A DNA stretch of 62,866 nucleotides, taken from a virus (lineage: Duplodnaviria > Caudoviricetes). Under the pieces are notes generated by a model. It had not been told where the DNA came from. It did no database searches and worked only from the letters and a program-made list of their open reading frames with translations. The stretch is from positions 1 to 62,866 of the IMG/VR virus record IMGVR_UViG_3300006030_000030, one strand, 5' to 3'. The stretch's first letter is position 1; every line of letters begins with the position of its first letter. The position numbers and the translations under genes are program-made. Shown one piece after another: positions 15,201-56,610 of this stretch.

Positions 15201-17066
15201 ATGGCCTATTTTCGCCTCAACATCAAGCCGGGCATCGACAAGCAAAACACTGAGTACGGTGCCGAGGGCGGCTACACGGACGGGGACAACATCCGTTTCC
15301 GTTACGGCCTGCCTGAGAAAATAGGCGGCTGGGAAGGCTTCGAGGGCCAAGATACCTACCTCGTGGGCATGCCCAGCGAGGTGTTTACGTGGACGAGCCT
15401 GTCTGGCATTCCCTACGTCATGGTGGGCACCACCAAAAAGCTCTACGTTTCCACGGGCAGCCTGTGGTTTGACATCACCCCACTGCGGGACACTACCACG
15501 GCAGGTGCAGTCACCTTTGCCGCGACCGACGGCTCGGCCACCATCATGGTGACCGACACGGGCCACGGGGCCGAGTTGGGCGATTTTGTTACCTTCAGTG
15601 GGGCAGTAGCGCTGGGCGGCAACATCACCGCTGCCATCCTGAACTCTGAGTACGAAATCACCTCCATTGTCAGCGCCAATGCGTACACCATCACGGCGCC
15701 TGTGGCGGCCAACGCCAGTGATTCAGGCAACGGCGGCGCCTCTGTGATCGGCGCTTACCAGATTTCCGTCGGATCTGATGTCAACTACTTCGACTTCGGC
15801 TGGGGCACCGGCACATGGGGCCAGAGCACATGGGGCACGCCACGTACCGCAGGCACCACCCCTGCACTGGAGTCCCGCGTCTGGCAGTTTGACAACTACG
15901 GCGAGGACGTGGTCTGCCAGCTGGTAGACGGCCCGGCGTATTACTGGGACCTGTCAGCAGGAACATCGGCCCGCGCAACGGTGCTCTCGGGCGCTCCGAC
16001 CAAGAGCAAGTACGCGCTGGTCTCCACGCCTGACAGGCACCTTGTCTGCTTCGGCACGGAATCCGTCATTGGCACACCGTCCTCACAGGATCCGATGTTC
16101 GTGCGGTTCTCCAATCAGGAGGACATCACGCAGTTCGTCGAGAGCGCGACCAACACGGCCGGCGGTCAACGGCTCACGGACGGCAACCAGATCGTCACGG
16201 CAGTGCGCTCGCGCGGCCAGATCCTGATCTTCACCGACACCTCACTGCACGGCCAGCAGTTCCTTGGGCCGCCGTTCACCTTCGGCTTCCAGCAGCTGGG
16301 CGCCAACTGCGGCTGTATCGGGCCCCACGCGGCTGTGGATGTCAATGGCGTGACGTTCTGGATGGGCACCGAGGCCTTCTACGTGTTCGACGGTACCGTC
16401 AAGAAGCTCTCCTGTACGGTGCAGGACTACGTGTTCAAGGACCTCAATCAGGTGCAGAAGACCAAGGTTCATGTGGGTCTGAACAGCCAGTTCAACGAGG
16501 TGACGTGGTGGTACTGCTCGTTCACCAGCGACTACATCGACCGTTATGTGAGCTTCAATTACCTCGAAAACGTCTGGTCGATTGGCACCATGGCCCGCAC
16601 GGCATGGGTGGATCTGAGCGCGTACCCCAAGCCGGTGGCCACGAAGTACTACCCGGAAGGAACGCAGAGCACGATCAGCACCATCTACGGACTGACTGCC
16701 GGTCGGGCGATTGTGTACCAGCAGGAGTCTGGCACGAACGACAACGGCGTATCGATGCCCAACTATCTGGTGTCCGGCTACTTTGACATCGGGGATGGCG
16801 ACAACATGCTGTACATGAAGCGCTTCATTCCCGACTTCAAGAATCAGGTAGGCGACCTGACCATACGCCTGTTGTTGCGCCCCTATCCGCAGGCCACTGC
16901 CAGCCCGAGTTCCTTGGACCCGTATGTCATCACGCCGACCACTGAAAAGGTGGACACCCGCGCCCGTGGGCGACAGATATCCCTGCGCATTGAGAACGAC
17001 GAGCTGAATTCGTTCTGGCGCTTCGGAACGCTGCGTGTCGATATCCAACCGGATGGTCTGCGATGA
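15201..17066 (+). CDS. Putative tail tubular B / packaged-DNA stabilisation protein
   Basis: 621 aa; VRFSNQED and DTRARGRQ; position before the ejection proteins. Confidence 0.65.
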
Positions 17067-28941: not shown

Positions 28942-29479
28942 CATGTTCCAACAGGACGCCGAGGCATTGACCCTGTCCGATGACGACATCAAGGGCGTTG
29001 CCGGATTGGCAAAAAGAGCCAAGGAGCTTAACAAGGAGATCGAGGACCTCGAGAAGACCTTGTCAGAGCGCAAGGACAACTACCGAAAACTGACTGAAGA
29101 ATCGCTGCCCGAGGCACTTGCCTCCATGGGCATGTCGAGTTTTCGCATGGACGATGGCAGCAGTATTGAGATCAAGCCCTTTTACGGGGCATCCATCAAA
29201 GCAGAACGTCAGGCAGAGGCTTTCGCTTGGCTTCGCGAACACGGTTACGATGACATCATCAAGAACACTGTGTCCGTGAGGTTTGGCAAAGGGGAGGATG
29301 AGCTGTGTGCTCGCCTTCTGCAGAACCTGAAAGGGACGGGCTTCATACCGGAGCAGGTCCAGAAGGTTGAGCCCATGACCCTCAAGGCATGGGTGAAGGA
29401 GCAGGTGGAGAAAGGCAGAGAGTTCCCAACGGAGCTTTTTGGCGCCTTCATCGGAAAAAAAGCAATCATCAAATCATAA
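28928..29479 (+). CDS. Conserved replication-module protein
   Basis: AFAWLREHG.DDIIKN..TLKAWVKEQ.E.G. Confidence 0.8.
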   Translation: MTLNDMFQQDAEALTLSDDDIKGVAGLAKRAKELNKEIEDLEKTLSERKDNYRKLTEESLPEALASMGMSSFRMDDGSSIEIKPFYGASIKAERQAEAFAWLREHGYDDIIKNTVSVRFGKGEDELCARLLQNLKGTGFIPEQVQKVEPMTLKAWVKEQVEKGREFPTELFGAFIGKKAIIKS

Positions 29480-39091: not shown

Positions 39092-39396
39092 TGTTTACTG
39101 ATAGAGAATGGTTTGAAGCAAAGTGCTTCGGCCAGTACGAGCAACGCGAAAACCGCGAGGAGGTTGTGGTGTTTCGGCGCGAAGACCTGTGCGCCTACGT
39201 CACGATGCTGCGCCAGTATGATGCCGCTACGCGGCATGAACAATTTATCGGACTGACACTGGAAGAAGTGGAGGACGTCATCAAGTCCAACATCACGATC
39301 ACCGATCAGCGGTTGTATGAAGGCGTCTATGCAGTAGCGGTGGACATCGAGGCGGCGCTGAAGAACAGGAACACAATCACTGGAGACAACAATTGA
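39088..39396 (+). CDS. Hypothetical protein
   Basis: 102 aa; GLT.EE..IEAALK..N C-terminus. Confidence 0.65.
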   Translation: MMFTDREWFEAKCFGQYEQRENREEVVVFRREDLCAYVTMLRQYDAATRHEQFIGLTLEEVEDVIKSNITITDQRLYEGVYAVAVDIEAALKNRNTITGDNN

Positions 39397-39578
39397 GAGC
39401 CAACCTCTATTATAGTAACCTGAGCAGGAAAGCGGTAAAGACAGAAAGCGCTGACGAAGAAAGAAAGAAATTGGAAGAAGCGATCAAAAAGTACCTTGCT
39501 AACGGTGGCAAGATCACCGTAATCCCGGCAGGCGTGACGAGACTGTCGCTTAATGATGAAACAGAAAGAGATAACTAA
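39393..39578 (+). CDS. SutA-like RNA polymerase-binding small protein
   Basis: ERKKLEEAIKKYLANGGKITVIP resembles the SutA core (ER..L..AMEEFL..GGKV..I, from recall). Confidence 0.55.
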   Translation: MRANLYYSNLSRKAVKTESADEERKKLEEAIKKYLANGGKITVIPAGVTRLSLNDETERDN

Positions 39579-45015: not shown

Positions 45016-45699
45016 ATGGTTCGAAGAAGCGAGATTCCAGAGGCACTGAAGAGCGCCCCAACTGACAGGAAGATGTCAACTTGGAAGAAAACCAAGGAGA
45101 AACTCCTGACCCCAGTGCAAAAACCACCGAACAGACCCCTGACGGCGCAGGAGTGGCGATTCGTTCAAGAGATTGTTGCCAGCTTTGGGGAGATCACTCT
45201 GAAGGAGGCCGCCATACGTGCCGGGTACGATCCCCTGAAAGCCAAGGCCAAGGCAGTGGAGCTGACCAACCCCAAGACCTCTGCGCATATTGTTGCTGCC
45301 ATTCAAGAGCATCGGCAGGAAATGGCCGAGGTATACGGCACGACATATGAGCGGCATATGCGAGACCTACAGCGCATTCGCGACGCGGCTCTGCGAGCAG
45401 GGAGCTTTGGAGCGGCAGTGCAGGCGGAATTCCGCCGGGGTCAGGCTCTGGGGACAATCTATGTCGAACGCAAAGAAGTCAGGTACGGCACCATCGATGC
45501 CATGAGCAAGGAAGAGGTCATGAAGGAGCTGGAGCGCTTGAAGGATGTATATGGCTCGGGAAATATTATCGAATTAACGCCTGAGCAGGTCGAGCAGGCA
45601 GTACTGGAGGGGAAGGAATATGCCAGCGAATCCGGAGACGCTGCTGTACCAGCGACTGAGGGACAATCTGCCACAGGATTGCAGGATCACGAGGATTGA
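45016..45699 (+). CDS. terS: Terminase small subunit
   Basis: LTAQEWRFVQE..TLKEAAIRAGY HTH, AAVQAE..RG..G.Y, IDAMSKEEV. Confidence 0.8.
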   Translation: MVRRSEIPEALKSAPTDRKMSTWKKTKEKLLTPVQKPPNRPLTAQEWRFVQEIVASFGEITLKEAAIRAGYDPLKAKAKAVELTNPKTSAHIVAAIQEHRQEMAEVYGTTYERHMRDLQRIRDAALRAGSFGAAVQAEFRRGQALGTIYVERKEVRYGTIDAMSKEEVMKELERLKDVYGSGNIIELTPEQVEQAVLEGKEYASESGDAAVPATEGQSATGLQDHED

Positions 45700-50208: not shown

Positions 50209-50240
50209 CTATTTCCGGTAATTGCTATTACCGGAAATAG
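50209..50240. repeat. Perfect 14-bp inverted repeat
   Basis: CTATTTCCGGTAAT-TGCT-ATTACCGGAAATAG. Confidence 0.9.
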
Positions 50241-50567
50241 CGCCCCGGGCCGCGTGCCGCCGGCACGGGTCCCTTGCCGGCCGATCCGCCCGCCTCGGGC
50301 CCCGGTCCAGAGCCGATCCGGCAAAAGCCCCCGGCCTAGCGCAGCGGTGGCTTAAGCCCGATTTTGTACATACATGGATTAGTAAAACGCTTTTTAGACC
50401 CCCTTTCCGTAAGCCCCCGGCCGCGCGCCAATAACCGTGCCAAGTCCGCCCGCTGTATAATGAATTCGTCAAACAGGAATATTCATATAACTTTTAGTTA
50501 TAAAAAGTTCTGAAGGGCTTATATCCCTTGGTTATAGGTCATATTCCAAACGGTTATATGCACCCGA

Positions 50568-50583
50568 TGTTCCACGTGGAACA
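50568..50583. promoter_or_regulatory. parS: Chromosomal-type parS site (ParB/Spo0J binding)
   Basis: TGTTCCACGTGGAACA, a perfect palindrome matching the bacterial parS consensus, intergenic. Confidence 0.75.
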
Positions 50584-50705
50584 TCCCGGCCTTTTTGCCC
50601 ATGGAAAAAGGGCCTGAAGAGGCCTTCTGGGAAAGGCCCCCCTTGGTTTGCAAAATCGAGGGGGCGGGGGTATATATAAAAATTCAAAACAGAAATGGAG
50701 AAATC

Positions 50706-52178
50706 ATGGGTAACGCAGGAAGGCCGCAGTTTGACATTGAGTCGCATCGCAAGAAGCTGCAGCTTCGGATGTTGCAGCTTGAGGCGCAGGACAAGGCGAG
50801 GGACACCTTCTTGTCTTTTTGTCAGTACGTCTGGCCGGAGATGCTGGTCGGGGAGCACCACAGGCTCATTGCCGAGAAGCTTGATCGGGTGGTCGAGGGC
50901 AAGTGCAAGCGGCTGATGATTGCCATGCCCCCTCGTCACGGAAAGAGCCAGATGGGCAGTTACCTGTTTCCGGCGTACCTGATGGGCCGCTTGCCGCGGT
51001 CCAAGCTCATTGTGGGGTCGCACACGGCAGAGCTGGCGCAGCGCTTTGGCAGGATGATTCGAAACCTTGTGTCCGAGGAGCGTTATCGGGATATCTTTCC
51101 TGAGTTGAAGTTGTCTGCGGACTCCAAGGCCGCGGGCCGTTGGGATACCAGCGCCGGGGGCGAAGCGTTTTTCATTGGCAAAGGCGGTGCGATGACGGGC
51201 CGTGGCGGGGACATCGTAATTCTGGATGACATCTTGGATGAGCAGGATGCGATGTCGGACACGGCGATGGACAACACGTTTGAGTGGTACACCTCTGGCC
51301 CGCGTCAGCGTCTGCAGCCTAACGGGGCGATTATTGTGATCAACACCCGCTGGCGCACGGATGACCTGACGGGTCGTTTGCTCAAGATGCAGGGGCAGCC
51401 CAGATCGGACCAGTGGGAGGTGTTGGAGTTCCCGGCAATCATGCCGTCGGGCAAGCCCCTGTGGCCGGGGTACTGGAAGCTGGAGGAGCTGGAGAAGGTT
51501 CGCACGGCGATTGGCGTGCGCAAGTGGAACGCGCAGTGGCAGCAGACGCCCACGGCAGAGGACGGGGCGATCCTCAAGCGTGAGTGGTGGCGACGTTGGG
51601 AGCATGATGAACCGCCGCCCGTGCATTACATTATTCAGTCGTATGACACGGCGTATTCGAAGAAGGAGACGGCAGACTACTCTGTGATCACGACGTGGGG
51701 AGTGTTCTATCCGGACGCGGACTCGGGGCCGAACTTGATTCTTTTGGCCGTGTGCCGCGGTCGGTGGGACTTTCCTGAGTTGAAGCGTGTTGCGAAGGAC
51801 GAGTACAAGTACTGGAACCCTGACAATGTGTTGATTGAGGCCAAGGCCACGGGCACCGTGCTGCAGCAGGAGCTGCGTCGGATGGGGATTCCTGTGACGA
51901 TGTACAGTCCCGGGGGGCGCAGGGCGGGGCAGGACAAGGTATCGCGGGCCAATGCGGTAGCGACGATGTTCGAGGCGGGGATGGTCTGGGCGCCACGCAC
52001 GGAGTGGGCGGACGAGTTGATTGAGGAGTGTGCGGCGTTCCCCAGTGGCGACAATGATGACCAAGTGGACTCCACGACGCAGGCGTTGATGCGTTTCCGG
52101 GCGGGGAACTTCATTGCTTTGGAAACGGACGAGGGGGATAAGCCCGGTGACCCTTCTGTTGTGAAGGAGTATTATTGA
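50706..52178 (+). CDS. terL: Terminase large subunit
   Basis: Walker A MPPRHGKS, Walker B IILDD-like IVILDD, NTRW, nuclease SYDTA and DDQVDS. ATG 50706 after GGAG. Confidence 0.93.
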   Translation: MGNAGRPQFDIESHRKKLQLRMLQLEAQDKARDTFLSFCQYVWPEMLVGEHHRLIAEKLDRVVEGKCKRLMIAMPPRHGKSQMGSYLFPAYLMGRLPRSKLIVGSHTAELAQRFGRMIRNLVSEERYRDIFPELKLSADSKAAGRWDTSAGGEAFFIGKGGAMTGRGGDIVILDDILDEQDAMSDTAMDNTFEWYTSGPRQRLQPNGAIIVINTRWRTDDLTGRLLKMQGQPRSDQWEVLEFPAIMPSGKPLWPGYWKLEELEKVRTAIGVRKWNAQWQQTPTAEDGAILKREWWRRWEHDEPPPVHYIIQSYDTAYSKKETADYSVITTWGVFYPDADSGPNLILLAVCRGRWDFPELKRVAKDEYKYWNPDNVLIEAKATGTVLQQELRRMGIPVTMYSPGGRRAGQDKVSRANAVATMFEAGMVWAPRTEWADELIEECAAFPSGDNDDQVDSTTQALMRFRAGNFIALETDEGDKPGDPSVVKEYY

Positions 52179-52224
52179 GGGATAGAATGGGGCACTGACT
52201 TTTTTGGAGGGTGGCGCTGTGGCG

Positions 52225-55200
52225 ATGAATGCACGACAAATGCTGGCGGGGCTGCCTGTTCAAATGGCCGAGGGCGGCGAGACGTGGTCTCCGGGCGATT
52301 CCCTTGGCCGGCGTCGTGCTATTGAGAGTGGTAATGAGGCGGGCTGGTTGCAGGCGGTAGCGGACTCTGCTCAACGCTGGATGTCTAATCCGGGCACTGC
52401 GGCTGAAGCCTACGATGCCATGGTACAGTCCGGCATTGGCATCAAGGACCTTCTGGATGCGGGGGTGTCGCAGGCAACCATCGATCAGGCCCTGTCTATT
52501 CCTACCAGTGAAGCACAGAAGCAGGTCAACAGGCTGACCGCCACCAGCCTGACCAACACCTTGGCACAGAACCCGAACATTGCAGGGGAGCTTGCCGCCC
52601 GCGGGGCGCAGGACGTGTACGCGCAATCCCGTCAGTTTGTAGAGAACCTGCAGAAGGACGGCCTGACGGACGACGAGCGGCGCTACTTGCAGCAGGTCGC
52701 GGCACAGCAGGGCTGGGGGTTTTCTGACATTCGCGCTGCAGGCGTGGACCCCAGTATCCTGTTCAAGTCTTTTGAGGCCCCTGCTCCGGTGACTCCTGCT
52801 CCGGTGACTCCTGCCCCTGTCTTCCCTCAGCCCGACCCCTACACCCCGGTGACGGTGTACGACCCCAACCAGTTCATTCGCGAGAACGCAGGGGCGGACT
52901 TGTACGCGAAGGGCCAGCCTGCTTTGGACACGGCGTTTCGAGAAAGCCCTGTTCGTACAGTCAGTCCGGTGACGGGGCAGTACGTGTACACCCCGGCGGC
53001 TTCTCTGCGCCCTGCCACTGGTTCGGGGTTCAGTTTTACGCCGCCTGTGGTGACCAGCCGTCCGCGTCAGCTGCTGGACGTGGCACCGACTGCCTCTGCT
53101 TCGCAGCTGTACGCACAGTCGCGTCAGGAACAGGACCGCGCGCTGCGAAACGCCTTCACTGCAGCCCAGATACCTCTGGGCGGTCAGGACGTTTACAGTT
53201 GGCAGTCCCGTCTTCGCAGCGGAGACTACATTTCCCCGACCGGAGCGTTTGACACCACCCGATTCAATCAGGACTTCCAGTCATGGGCCGCGGGCCGCGG
53301 CTCGGGAACCTCTGGCACTTCTGGCCAGCCGGACGCAGTAGCGTATGACGCCATGGGAAACCCGATACAGCCTGTAGATCCCATGCAGCTGCAGCCCAAG
53401 ATGTTCTTGGGTTTCGCTGACGGCGGGGACGTGAGAGCGCGGGAGTTGCTTGATCGCTTAAAAAAGCCTGAAGGCGCCGAGGAGCAGGTCCTTGGCGCCG
53501 AGGACACTTACGCTCAAGCGCCGGGAACCTTGGACTTTGTTTCGGAAAAGGTGGGCCGCGGCGCGCGGGCTTTGCGAGACGTTGTGGTGAACTTTACCCC
53601 CCTGTCGAAGATGGAAGAGGACGCGACGCGGATATCGCTCGAGCACTTCCCGGACAGCAGGCAGTACGGCGGGGAATCGGACGCACTGAGGCACATGCTG
53701 TTTCAAGCGCAGGCTGTTCAGCGCTTTGGGCAGCCGGCCGCCAAGGCACTGAGTCTGATCAACGAGTATGGGCTGGCTATTCTGGAGTCGCAGCCGAAAG
53801 AGCATCTGCGCATGGATTTGGAAAACGATGCTCTTGGTAGAGAAATTGGTCTTTCCGACCTGAGTGAAGAAGAGAAGCTTCAGGCTATTCTGGATCTCAT
53901 CGGGTCTGGAAAGGCGGTTGTGCTCAACCCTCAGAGGAAGGAGTTTGCCAAAGGCGGAGAGGCCTCTGCCTCTCCCACTCCCGAAGAACTCTTGGCCCAG
54001 ATAGACCGCAGCATGGCCAACTCCCCGGCCTCGGCTCAAGGCACCGCCAGCAGTGTGCAGCCAGACTCCGTGGAACAGGACAGCCGCAGCATGCTTCGCC
54101 GCATCAGTGATGCGTTCGGGCAGAACGTGACGGCTCCCGTGGTGGGATCGATGTTGGACATGACCGCGGGGGTCGGCGACCTTGCTCAGATGGGCATAAA
54201 AGCCGGAGCGAATAAGCTTGGCATTGAGACCCAGCCGTTCACCCCGGTCTCCTCTGCTATTCAGGAATCCCTTGGCGTGGCAGGGTATGACCCGTACTCC
54301 CCGGCAGCCATTGCGACCGCCATTGGCCTTCCGGCGGCAGCGTCGCTGCGCGCAGCAGGGGCCGCGGCCCGCGCTTCACGGCCCATGGTGTCCGAGATGG
54401 CGGCCTCAGGTGGCCGGCGTCGCCCGGCCCCGGGCAGTGCTGAGGAGATCTTGATGCGCCTTGCCCCTATCGTGGACAAGGAAGCCTCAATCTATGCCAG
54501 CTCGGAGCTTGCGGCCATGGGGGCACGGGAAGTGGCGCCCGATAACATGACCGCGGAGATAGCCGCGGCGGTTGCCGGCGGCGGGGCGTACAACACGCTG
54601 GACAACATCTTGAGCAGTTCTTCGCGGTCCGCGGACATGGGCCCGGCCAACACTGCGCGCTCTCAGATGGCGCAGATCTACCAACATATCCCCACGCCGG
54701 AGCGTCCGTTTGTCGGGCGGCTGGATTCCTTCATTGCCAATGACTTGAACGTCGGCCGCATCAGCCGGGACGAGTTGCTGGCGCGCATGCGGGGCAAGTT
54801 CCGTGGCCCGGAGCTATTGCGGGTGGAGCGTGCGTTTGAGGGGGTGGATCCCAAGGCGAAGCTGACCCCGAACGAGGTGTTGGAAAAACTGCAGGCGTCT
54901 TATGATCCGTCGGACCTTGAGCTGGTCACCATCCGAGGGGATGTTCCCTACAAGAGCATGGACAACCCGTGGTTTGGCGACGAGCAGTCTCTTGGTACTC
55001 AGCGGGAGCAGCTCACGGGGGTGGGGGAAGACATGCAAGGGACCATCGTGCTTCGCCGTGCGGGGCAGCCGAGTCAAAGCACCGTTGACCCCGAGATGGT
55101 TTCTGCTGCAGAGAACACCTATCGTGAGCTGGACCGAACAGGCCCCATGACAGCCGATTCCCCGTTTGTAAGGGGGATGATTCGGCCGCTGTCATACGAA

Positions 55201-56610
55201 GACTTTGCCGCACCTTTTGAAGCGCTCTTCAAAGGGCGCCAAGATGACACTTCGCAATTTGTCCTTGAGCGTCTGGATAACATGGAAAGGGTGGTCAACA
55301 AACGGTCGGAGCAGGCCAGTGCGCTGGGGGTGCTGAATGACAGGTTTGAAACCTTGGGGGCTATGGCCGCGGATCTTTTCCCACAGAAGCGGCTAGAGTT
55401 GCTTGAGCAGGGGGGCGTCTCCAGAGAAGACCTGATGGGCAAAGCTTATGCCAAGGCATTTGAAGAGGCCTACTCAGAGGCGGTGGCCGGGGCGGCTTTG
55501 GGCACCCCGTACGGCCGTGACATGATCCTTTCTTTCCCGAAGCCCGAGAACATTACAGACCCGCAGTTGGCAAACGAGTTCCTTAAGACCCGTGCGCGCC
55601 CCTACTTGTCTGGGAAAATACAAGAGATCTCGGCAGATGCCACTCTGCGGTTGGCAGTCGAGTTACGCCTGCTGAGAGGTTCAGAGGATGTCCGAGACGC
55701 ACTAAAGAACATGGCTGCTCAACGGCCGGAGATGGTCCCCGGGGTTAATCCGGACTACCGTGGGCAGCATACAATGGTTACTGAGAACACCCCCGGGGTC
55801 GTATCGTTCAGCCGATCAACAGATGTCCGCACCGAGATCCCGGGAATGGGGCAGGTAAACGGCATCTACCTGCATGAGCTGCAGTCGGATCTTCTGGATG
55901 ACTTGCGTAAGCGACAGGGCGGCATACCCCGTGGCGCGACGCAAGAGGAGTTGCAGAGGATCATCAGCACCACGCAGGATCAGGTGGAACCCATCTCAAA
56001 CAAGATTCGGGAGCTCAATGAGCAGCTTCAGGACATGCCCCCGAGATATAGCGAAACAGGGGCCACAGAATGGATGCTGCGTGTAAACGAGATCAATTCG
56101 TTGCAGAACAAGAGAGACGCTCTTTTGGGCAACCTTACGTCGGCTAAGGAACGACTGGACACGCTTCGCGAACGCGGACGTAGCCTTTCTGAGCTGGACG
56201 AGATTTTCCCCGGGATGACCACGGACTCCAAGTCAGTGCAGACGATGATGATCAAGGCAGCGGTGGCCTCAGCAGCGCAGCGCGGGCTTAACTTTGTCGC
56301 CCTGCCCTCGCAGCTGTACTCAGGCCAGCCTCAGTTGTACGAGCGCTTGCCTCAGAATGCGCGCGACGTGGTGAAGGACCTTGGCGAAGGCTTCGCGCTG
56401 CAGCAGATCAACCTTCGTAACCGTGCCGGGGAGTTCCCTGTGTTGGCCATCACGTGGGATCAGTCCACGGCCGCGGGCCGCGAAGGGTTGAACAGGGTTC
56501 TCACCCGTGGGGTTCCGTTCAAGCACGGCGGTGAAGTCACCACGCAGCCCGATGACTTGAAAAACCTGCTATCCTTCTTGGACAAAAAACCAGCCAGCAA
56601 ACGGAAATAA
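52225..56610 (+). CDS. Giant multi-module, probably internal virion protein
   Basis: About 1460 aa between terL and portal; modules bounded by xxxGG motifs; DALRHML..D..ND segment and ELQSD segment. Confidence 0.7.
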   Translation: MNARQMLAGLPVQMAEGGETWSPGDSLGRRRAIESGNEAGWLQAVADSAQRWMSNPGTAAEAYDAMVQSGIGIKDLLDAGVSQATIDQALSIPTSEAQKQVNRLTATSLTNTLAQNPNIAGELAARGAQDVYAQSRQFVENLQKDGLTDDERRYLQQVAAQQGWGFSDIRAAGVDPSILFKSFEAPAPVTPAPVTPAPVFPQPDPYTPVTVYDPNQFIRENAGADLYAKGQPALDTAFRESPVRTVSPVTGQYVYTPAASLRPATGSGFSFTPPVVTSRPRQLLDVAPTASASQLYAQSRQEQDRALRNAFTAAQIPLGGQDVYSWQSRLRSGDYISPTGAFDTTRFNQDFQSWAAGRGSGTSGTSGQPDAVAYDAMGNPIQPVDPMQLQPKMFLGFADGGDVRARELLDRLKKPEGAEEQVLGAEDTYAQAPGTLDFVSEKVGRGARALRDVVVNFTPLSKMEEDATRISLEHFPDSRQYGGESDALRHMLFQAQAVQRFGQPAAKALSLINEYGLAILESQPKEHLRMDLENDALGREIGLSDLSEEEKLQAILDLIGSGKAVVLNPQRKEFAKGGEASASPTPEELLAQIDRSMANSPASAQGTASSVQPDSVEQDSRSMLRRISDAFGQNVTAPVVGSMLDMTAGVGDLAQMGIKAGANKLGIETQPFTPVSSAIQESLGVAGYDPYSPAAIATAIGLPAAASLRAAGAAARASRPMVSEMAASGGRRRPAPGSAEEILMRLAPIVDKEASIYASSELAAMGAREVAPDNMTAEIAAAVAGGGAYNTLDNILSSSSRSADMGPANTARSQMAQIYQHIPTPERPFVGRLDSFIANDLNVGRISRDELLARMRGKFRGPELLRVERAFEGVDPKAKLTPNEVLEKLQASYDPSDLELVTIRGDVPYKSMDNPWFGDEQSLGTQREQLTGVGEDMQGTIVLRRAGQPSQSTVDPEMVSAAENTYRELDRTGPMTADSPFVRGMIRPLSYEDFAAPFEALFKGRQDDTSQFVLERLDNMERVVNKRSEQASALGVLNDRFETLGAMAADLFPQKRLELLEQGGVSREDLMGKAYAKAFEEAYSEAVAGAALGTPYGRDMILSFPKPENITDPQLANEFLKTRARPYLSGKIQEISADATLRLAVELRLLRGSEDVRDALKNMAAQRPEMVPGVNPDYRGQHTMVTENTPGVVSFSRSTDVRTEIPGMGQVNGIYLHELQSDLLDDLRKRQGGIPRGATQEELQRIISTTQDQVEPISNKIRELNEQLQDMPPRYSETGATEWMLRVNEINSLQNKRDALLGNLTSAKERLDTLRERGRSLSELDEIFPGMTTDSKSVQTMMIKAAVASAAQRGLNFVALPSQLYSGQPQLYERLPQNARDVVKDLGEGFALQQINLRNRAGEFPVLAITWDQSTAAGREGLNRVLTRGVPFKHGGEVTTQPDDLKNLLSFLDKKPASKRK

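Follow-up and report, generated by a model that had tools for sequence, protein, structure and literature searches.

A chromosomal-type parS site without cognate par genes upstream of terL in an aquatic podovirus genome and its recurrence in related phages

To our knowledge, the phi29 family is the only group of virulent phages that uses host-type parS sites, and its use of them is tied to sporulation. The virulent Bacillus phage phi29 carries five parS sites, which are used through the host protein Spo0J for spore entrapment (accessible parts of PMC2731898 and PMC9437464; Meijer et al. 2005 as cited in PMC2731898). SGI1 hijacks the parABS system of the IncC helper plasmid with its own copies of parS, according to the accessible part of PMC10954446. 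These two, phi29/Nf and SGI1, were the only cases of a cis-only parS in the literature searched. Plasmid prophages (P1, N15 and the extrachromosomal mycobacteriophages) also have a partition centromere on the phage genome. In contrast to phi29, phages of the P1/N15 type are temperate and have their own ParA and ParB and a private parS (PMC7157519, in its accessible part). The centromere of the chromosomal ParABS systems is TGTTNCACGTGAAACA, and all Pseudomonas chromosomal parS have the variant TGTTCCACGTGGAACA (PMC5450999). In the review PMC7022226, parS is given as TGTTCCACGTGGAACG for Myxococcus and as NGTTNCACGTGAAACN for chromosome I of Vibrio cholerae. A Burkholderia ParB tolerates changes at positions 5 and 12 of parS (PMC5450999).

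We analyzed a phage genome of 62,866 bp, which is the whole IMG/VR record IMGVR_UViG_3300006030_000030 (completeness rating 100%) and is called the window below. Between the early and the late genes it contains a 550-bp non-coding stretch, 3' of the last early-region ORFs. A perfect palindrome, GATGTTCCACGTGGAACATC, lies in this stretch 120 nt upstream of terL (Table 1) and is overlapped only by spurious antisense ORFs. Its 16-bp core is identical to the published parS2/parS3 of Pseudomonas aeruginosa (PMC4368675, Table 1) and fits the consensus TGTTNCACGTGNAACA exactly. An exact match to the 16-mer was found in 0 of 100 dinucleotide-preserving shuffles of the window. The core is the single match in the window even when up to three mismatches are allowed, but that setting is uninformative, since 26 of 100 shuffles also gave a match. 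Half-sites (11 further GTTCCAC and 3 GTTTCAC, both strands) are not enriched in the window. The original prediction, made from the letters alone, had described a perfect intergenic 20-bp palindrome about 120 bp before terL, present in one full copy and representing a bacterial chromosomal parS. The positions, the sequence and the copy number were confirmed, and the identity with the P. aeruginosa sites supports the assignment to parS as far as a sequence can. The window site is like a chromosomal centromere in its identical 16 bp and in the positions that tolerate change. It is unlike one in that the window has no cognate parAB operon and no identifiable replication-origin context, and in that the replicon is a 63-kb virus.

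Table 1. Features of the region around the parS-type site, in positions of the window.
Feature	Position	Strand	Basis
20-bp perfect palindrome GATGTTCCACGTGGAACATC	50566-50585	no strand	sequence read
16-bp core TGTTCCACGTGGAACA, chromosomal-type parS by sequence; putative functional unit of the palindrome	50568-50583	no strand	sequence read
Spacer (about 55 bp, hairpin-rich) that separates parS from the promoter-like block	50586..50640	+	alignment, inverted repeats
Promoter-like element TTGCAA-17 nt-TATATA, putative late (terL operon) promoter	50648..50676	+	conserved block
terL (ATG at 50706), large terminase subunit, first gene of the structural/packaging operon	50706..52178	+	Pfam and PHROG

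The window had also been predicted to encode no ParA, ParB or integrase, and the protein searches agree with this. Among the Pfam matches listed for the 101 window ORFs there was no ParA, ParB (ParB_N, HTH_ParB), ParA-type ATPase, integrase or repressor. Three of the scans listed their best 25 families, and for two Pfam ORF sets this covered matches down to E 0.0042 and 0.00056. We also built a local HMM from five bacterial ParBs and searched the six-frame ORFs of the window, of five complete relatives and of other viral loci. The HMM gave no match in the window or in the five complete relatives (best E 2.5); the only matches among the viral loci searched were in L252 (E 2e-10) and, weakly, in L192 (E 1.6e-3). 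A genome-wide search for ParB_N (PF02195) gave 0 matches in the window, the 5 complete relatives, the 36 records that contain the 20-mer, and the 50 records searched among the 119 that have the canonical site (see below). This search found a chromosomal-type ParB in 4 of 5 metagenome bins, the source of the ParBs in the HMM, and missed the ParB of phage P1, the positive control (0 matches); the negatives therefore exclude only a ParB of the chromosomal type. None of the window genes adjoining the site co-occurs with parS (50 loci, 23 of them with a site). Because there is no cognate parA or parB on the same replicon, we refer to the site as an orphan parS.

This arrangement is like that of phi29 and Nf: a phage of the lytic class without its own ParB has a host-consensus parS in cis and, in the case of the window, would likewise exploit the chromosome-segregation protein of its host. 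No integrase, repressor or par genes were among the listed matches, and the phage genomes contain one site in the window, two each in three of the five complete relatives and five in the relative L010. The differences concern number, arrangement and pay-off. The five sites of phi29 are dispersed, are paired with Spo0A boxes and pay off by entry into the endospore, whereas in the lineage of the window, an unrelated aquatic podovirus group, the sites cluster at terL and number one or two, with as many as five in some relatives. No second host-factor site was identified in this lineage. Like SGI1, the phage would be a mobile element with only a cis site, borrowing the ParA and ParB of another replicon. 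The target of SGI1 is a plasmid system, and its gain is stability and helper exclusion, as the accessible part of PMC10954446 has it, whereas the element here is a lytic phage that would borrow the system of the chromosome. The likeness to the P1/N15 type ends with the centromere on a phage genome, since the window has no lysogeny genes and no parA-parB operon adjoining a private parS (PMC7157519, accessible part, for the comparison).

To follow the site in relatives, we used a TerL search of IMG/VR, which gave 598 matching stretches; the best 80 loci (594,016 bp) were analyzed. The 14-bp core GTTNCACGTGNAAC was found at 50 sites in 34 of these 80 loci, and the reversed control at 0. For the consensus TGTTNCACGTGNAACA, the best 80 of the 598 TerL loci contained 40 exact matches and 11 matches with one mismatch. 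In the closest relatives the site precedes terL, at position -138 (L002, 92% TerL identity), -186 (L003), -87 (L006) and -135 (L008). We took the site rates from loci with adequate flank and not from the labels of a TerL tree. With enough flank available in 54 loci, a site was found within -700 to +800 of terL in 20 and anywhere in the examined DNA in 23. When at least 3.5 kb was available on each side (27 loci), 12 loci had sites, and all 21 of these sites were located between -1802 and +1178 of terL. Among the five complete relatives, two sites are present in each of three and none in the other two; all five large partial relatives without a terL-proximal site have none anywhere in the examined DNA. 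The site is dispensable, because it is absent from 46 of the 80 loci, from two of the five complete relatives and from the five further large partial ones. In a quick TerL tree, sites after terL belong to one subclade and sites before terL to the subclades of the window; the tree needs many changes between presence and absence, and some of its "none" labels reflect short flanks. Relatives that have sites and those that do not are alike in GC content (0.527 vs 0.528). The original prediction depended on a parS that keeps its position in relatives without a parB. Such conservation was found: the site is upstream of terL in the closest relatives, core sites are present in 34 of the 80 loci, and the five complete relatives are ParB-less.

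The site also occurs well beyond the closest relatives. The exact 20-mer is present in 36 IMG/VR contigs, 13 of which share proteins with the window and 23 of which share none detectable; in more distant kin it lies near portal and GroES genes. The canonical site TGTTTCACGTGAAACA was found in at least 119 IMG/VR stretches (the L141-L259 set), as compared with 2 for the reversed control. A TerL of the window's family is encoded in the examined flanks of 24 of these stretches, and in 16 of the 24 the site is no more than 1.5 kb from it. The recurrence of the site is not due to chance. Among cultured phages, the Pelagibacter phage HTVC027P (MN698241.1) has CGTTTCACGTGAAACA at 16412-16427 with the 14-bp core intact. 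This site is intergenic; its distance is about 630 bp to the annotated terS and 4 kb to terL. The match in HTVC023P, TGTTACACATGTAACA at 29137, is weaker.

Several loci contain more than one or two sites. In L010 (3340-3760), five parS-type sites are interleaved with tandem arrays in an 800-bp non-coding stretch before terL; the arrays consist of a 7-bp unit repeated about seven times, a 19-bp unit repeated three times and a 15-bp unit repeated about seven times. By its sequence organization this region looks like a composite centromere or an iteron region. L073 has four sites in a similar non-coding region before terL that is rich in tandem repeats. Five-site arrays were also seen beside more distant TerLs, and several unrelated viral contigs have arrays of three to five sites.

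The subclade with sites after terL made it possible to compare the DNA with the peptide that it encodes. In this subclade the large gene downstream of terL contains the sites, which lie 436-530 bp after terL. Among 22 homologues of this gene, 14 keep the 16-mer in one frame, where it encodes (N/D)V(P/S)RET. There is no synonymous change in the GTT, CGT, GAA and ACA codons of these 14, in contrast to the codons for Leu, Gly, Lys, Ser, Val and Ala in the flanks, which vary freely. The sole variable base in the 14 in-frame 16-mers is the N of the consensus, and its change is non-synonymous (Pro to Ser). In one homologue the core is broken by a lone synonymous change (TCC instead of TCA), and the remaining seven have an unrelated linker peptide at this spot. 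In relatives, the gene (L038:5496 onward) has a conserved N-terminal part followed by a hypervariable linker, and the linker is the place of the in-frame parS. The phage sites differ from one another at positions 1, 5, 12 and 16, which are the positions open in the published chromosomal consensus NGTTNCACGTGAAACN (PMC7022226). The flanks of 35 distinct sites have nothing in common. The 16-mer is frozen and its flanks drift or are unrelated, so the constraint appears to act on a protein-binding DNA word and not on a peptide or a captured fragment. Judged from these alignments, the 16-mer is maintained by purifying selection at the DNA level and not by descent of a larger block. The extended 20-bp palindrome was considered as the unit and rejected; the flanks differ between sites, and it is the 16-mer that is conserved.

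The terL gene next to the site was identified by its matches to Pfam Terminase_6C (E 6.8e-13) and Terminase_6N and to PHROG 38 (E 1.2e-113). In an alignment of terL-upstream regions, the TTGCAA-TATATA block is conserved in 6 of 7 sequences, and we consider it the putative promoter of the terL operon. A consensus promoter scanner made no call on this block, the second hexamer of which is without the final T. The spacer of about 55 bp is limited to the window and its relatives L002 and L003, and this region contains inverted repeats and gave a weak terminator-like match. In L004, L006 and L008, the site directly adjoins a C-run and the TTGCAA-17 nt-TATATA block. The other neighbors of the site are ORFs without Pfam families or with matches to DUF932/GP88, and a TerS homologue is located at 45016-45699, 5 kb from the site. 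Just 3' of the last early-region ORFs, at 50209-50240, there is a perfect 14-bp stem with a 4-nt loop and no T-tract, which may terminate transcription or bind a protein where the early and late regions meet.

Taken together, these data suggest that the site is probably an orphan centromere, a chromosomal-type parS that is kept in cis, without par genes of the phage's own, to load the host ParB at the start of the late operon. The sequence itself, the variation that it permits, the unrelated viral contigs in which it recurs and the absence of a phage candidate together point to a bacterial ParB as the common binder. From the established biology of ParB, dimers of the host protein would bind the phage parS, close as CTP clamps and spread over the neighboring 1-2 kb, and the coated stretch would include the terL promoter region. 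The ParB-coated genome would then be coupled to the host ParABS system and the pole-anchoring machinery, which we rate as the most likely pay-off. In slow-growing hosts, a genome coupled in this way would be kept and partitioned during a stalled infection, comparable to phi29 via Spo0J. The same ParB complex would damp the late operon as long as ParB exceeds the phage genome copies. There are precedents for both effects. ParB of P. aeruginosa bound at parS3/parS4 represses adjacent genes, and a single chromosomal parS together with a par operon stabilizes plasmids (PMC7022226).

The benefit to the phage may thus lie in tethering and partition during a stalled infection, in damping of the late operon, in a role linked to packaging or in titration of ParB. 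The clustering of the sites at terL favors damping or a packaging role. Tethering and partition are favored by the precedent of phi29 and by the sites of remote kin and of HTVC027P, which lie farther from terL. Neither function explains all positions: segregation by itself leaves the clustering at terL unexplained, and promoter damping leaves unexplained the sites that lie kilobases from terL in more distant kin and in HTVC027P. No stalled or carrier state is documented for the HTVC023P-type group, which is described as strictly lytic (bioRxiv 10.1101/2019.12.14.876532, accessible part). The original prediction had proposed a cis-only hijack of the host ParABS. The core of this proposal, a parS of the host type in cis on a phage that has no par genes, is supported by all the computational tests, namely by its identity, its recurrence, the selection on it and the lack of ParB; the five functions offered along with it could not be separated.

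Apart from the loading of host ParB for segregation or damping, the site could be an accessory to packaging, which we consider unlikely. Host ParB at parS would be an architectural factor for the initiation of packaging, as IHF is at lambda cosB, or it would load SMC and fold each concatemer unit with the packaging region at the tip. The tight clustering of the sites at terL in the close clade, together with the 16 of 24 further contigs that have the site within 1.5 kb, is what this explanation would lead one to expect. Packaging regions are often non-coding and rich in repeats, as is the region before terL, and the HTVC027P site is intergenic and close to terS, at about 630 bp. However, a pac or cos site would be expected in all members that share a terminase, usually in or beside terS, and this site is missing from more than half of the relatives, including two of the five complete genomes, and lies 5 kb from the TerS homologue of the window. 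We also know of no terminase that uses ParB.

Less probable still is a take-over of the host by titration, in which replicating genomes that bear parS would soak up ParB and thereby derange chromosome segregation and the ParB-dependent control of division. The evidence for binding of ParB, such as sequence can provide, would serve this explanation as well as the loading of ParB at the late operon, and the arrays of four or five sites in some relatives would titrate more strongly. Most genomes, however, have only one or two sites. Titration requires no particular position, yet the sites cluster at terL, and the literature consulted contained no report of a benefit to a phage from the loss of ParB.

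It is very improbable that the site is an operator or pac site recognized by a protein that the phage encodes (TerS or a regulator), with a coincidental or convergent likeness to parS. Its location in the regulatory region before terL, adjoining a conserved promoter-like block, and the many window ORFs without an assignable function would suit such a protein. Against it, no neighboring gene co-occurs with the site, the HMM search found no ParB-like ORF in the window, and the same consensus with the same variable positions is found in those 23 of the 36 contigs for which no protein in common with the window was detectable, as well as in at least 119 IMG/VR stretches against 2 for the reversed control. 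One outcome that would have spoken against the original prediction, binding by TerS instead of ParB, is unlikely for the same consensus in unrelated contigs, for the 5-kb distance of the TerS homologue and for the absence of the site in more than half of the relatives. That the site is functionless is hardly credible, whether it is taken for a palindrome that arose by chance, for a captured fragment of host DNA or for a hairpin in the leader RNA of terL: the window has a single copy, the perfect palindrome could form an 8-bp RNA stem and a few chance 16-mers are expected over a scan of many windows, but the recurrence, the positional conservation and the frozen synonymous sites in relatives argue against it, the unrelated flanks indicate that there was no common captured fragment, and Rfam gave no family at the site, with only sub-threshold sRNA matches elsewhere.

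We return to the orphan parS as a site that would load host ParB. The literature searched contained no description of parS in the HTVC023P-type lineage, of a tie between parS and terL, or of parS in lytic phages beyond phi29/Nf, and neither parS nor ParB appears in the main text of PMC9599517, the main genomics paper on the HTVC023P type. The trick is known in kind from phi29, and what is new is the lineage (HTVC023P-type podoviruses) with its hosts, which probably do not sporulate, and also the embedding of the site in a reading frame and its tie to terL. A wider reading, which we put forward tentatively and hold with less than even confidence, is that the orphan chromosomal parS is a widespread, selected cis-element of the strictly lytic HTVC023P-related aquatic podoviruses, placed at terL so that ParB-CTP clamps act as a copy-sensing brake on late genes, as a spore-independent carrier tether or as a packaging factor. 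If this were true, host ParB would be a general dependency factor of phages outside Bacillus. A lineage that includes some of the most abundant aquatic viruses would, if host ParB is loaded, have a small and mutable DNA handle on the chromosome segregation of the host. The wider reading would also bear on the persistence of "strictly lytic" phages in slow-growing oligotrophic hosts, on the timing of late gene expression or packaging, and on parS content as a marker of host range, that is, of hosts with ParABS.

The known or suspected hosts of the HTVC023P group (SAR11, Verrucomicrobia, Bacteroidetes) are not known to form endospores. The nearest named phages by TerL identity are DSL-LC04 (63%), HTVC027P (56%), 023Pt_psg01 (55%) and HTVC023P (51%). 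The HTVC023P type has been described as consisting of lytic, integrase-less podoviruses, as the most abundant marine viral group known and as having homologues among the single-cell genomes of Verrucomicrobia and Bacteroidetes (bioRxiv 10.1101/2019.12.14.876532, in its accessible part). In bacterial assemblies, all relatives of the window TerL were found in metagenome bins, of six different phyla or classes, and 4 of 5 bins with TerL relatives have ParB and core parS sites. One bin labeled Verrucomicrobia contains a ParB gene and a phage contig with 80% TerL identity to the window and a core site 87 bp before terL. The same bin has two exact copies of TGTTCCACGTGGAACA, 800 bp apart, at the end of a 111-kb contig (G097:C49:345-360 and 1143-1158; L289). 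The bins show that bacteria with this parS share the habitat of the phage and nothing beyond that; binning is not evidence of a host.

Pfam and PHROG scans of the 101 ORFs gave a family-A DNA polymerase, UvrD- and SNF2-type helicases, an AEP primase, an exonuclease and two DNA methyltransferases, as well as an SU10-type adaptor, proteins similar to Pam3 gp32-34, a lysozyme, a GroES-like protein, a portal and a capsid protein; many ORFs had no assignable function. No tRNA genes were found in the window. A 61-aa ORF at 39393-39578 (+) matches the RNA-polymerase-binding domain of SutA (PF20661, E 6.9e-11, above the cut-off) and may be a phage-borne mimic of a host factor that binds RNA polymerase; a pattern scan of the genome contigs revealed no close relative of it. 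Between terL and the portal gene, at 52204-56610 (+), there is a 1468-aa ORF with a DUF6973 match, and its counterpart in DSL-LC04 is annotated as PcfJ-like; its homologues in relatives are the ones with the hypervariable linker and the in-frame parS. The structural half of the window (169-26419) encodes APS-kinase-like, sulfotransferase-like and long RCC1-repeat proteins (Pfam E 8e-17, 1e-16 and 6e-89), which suggests auxiliary genes related to sulfation and a beta-propeller tail protein.
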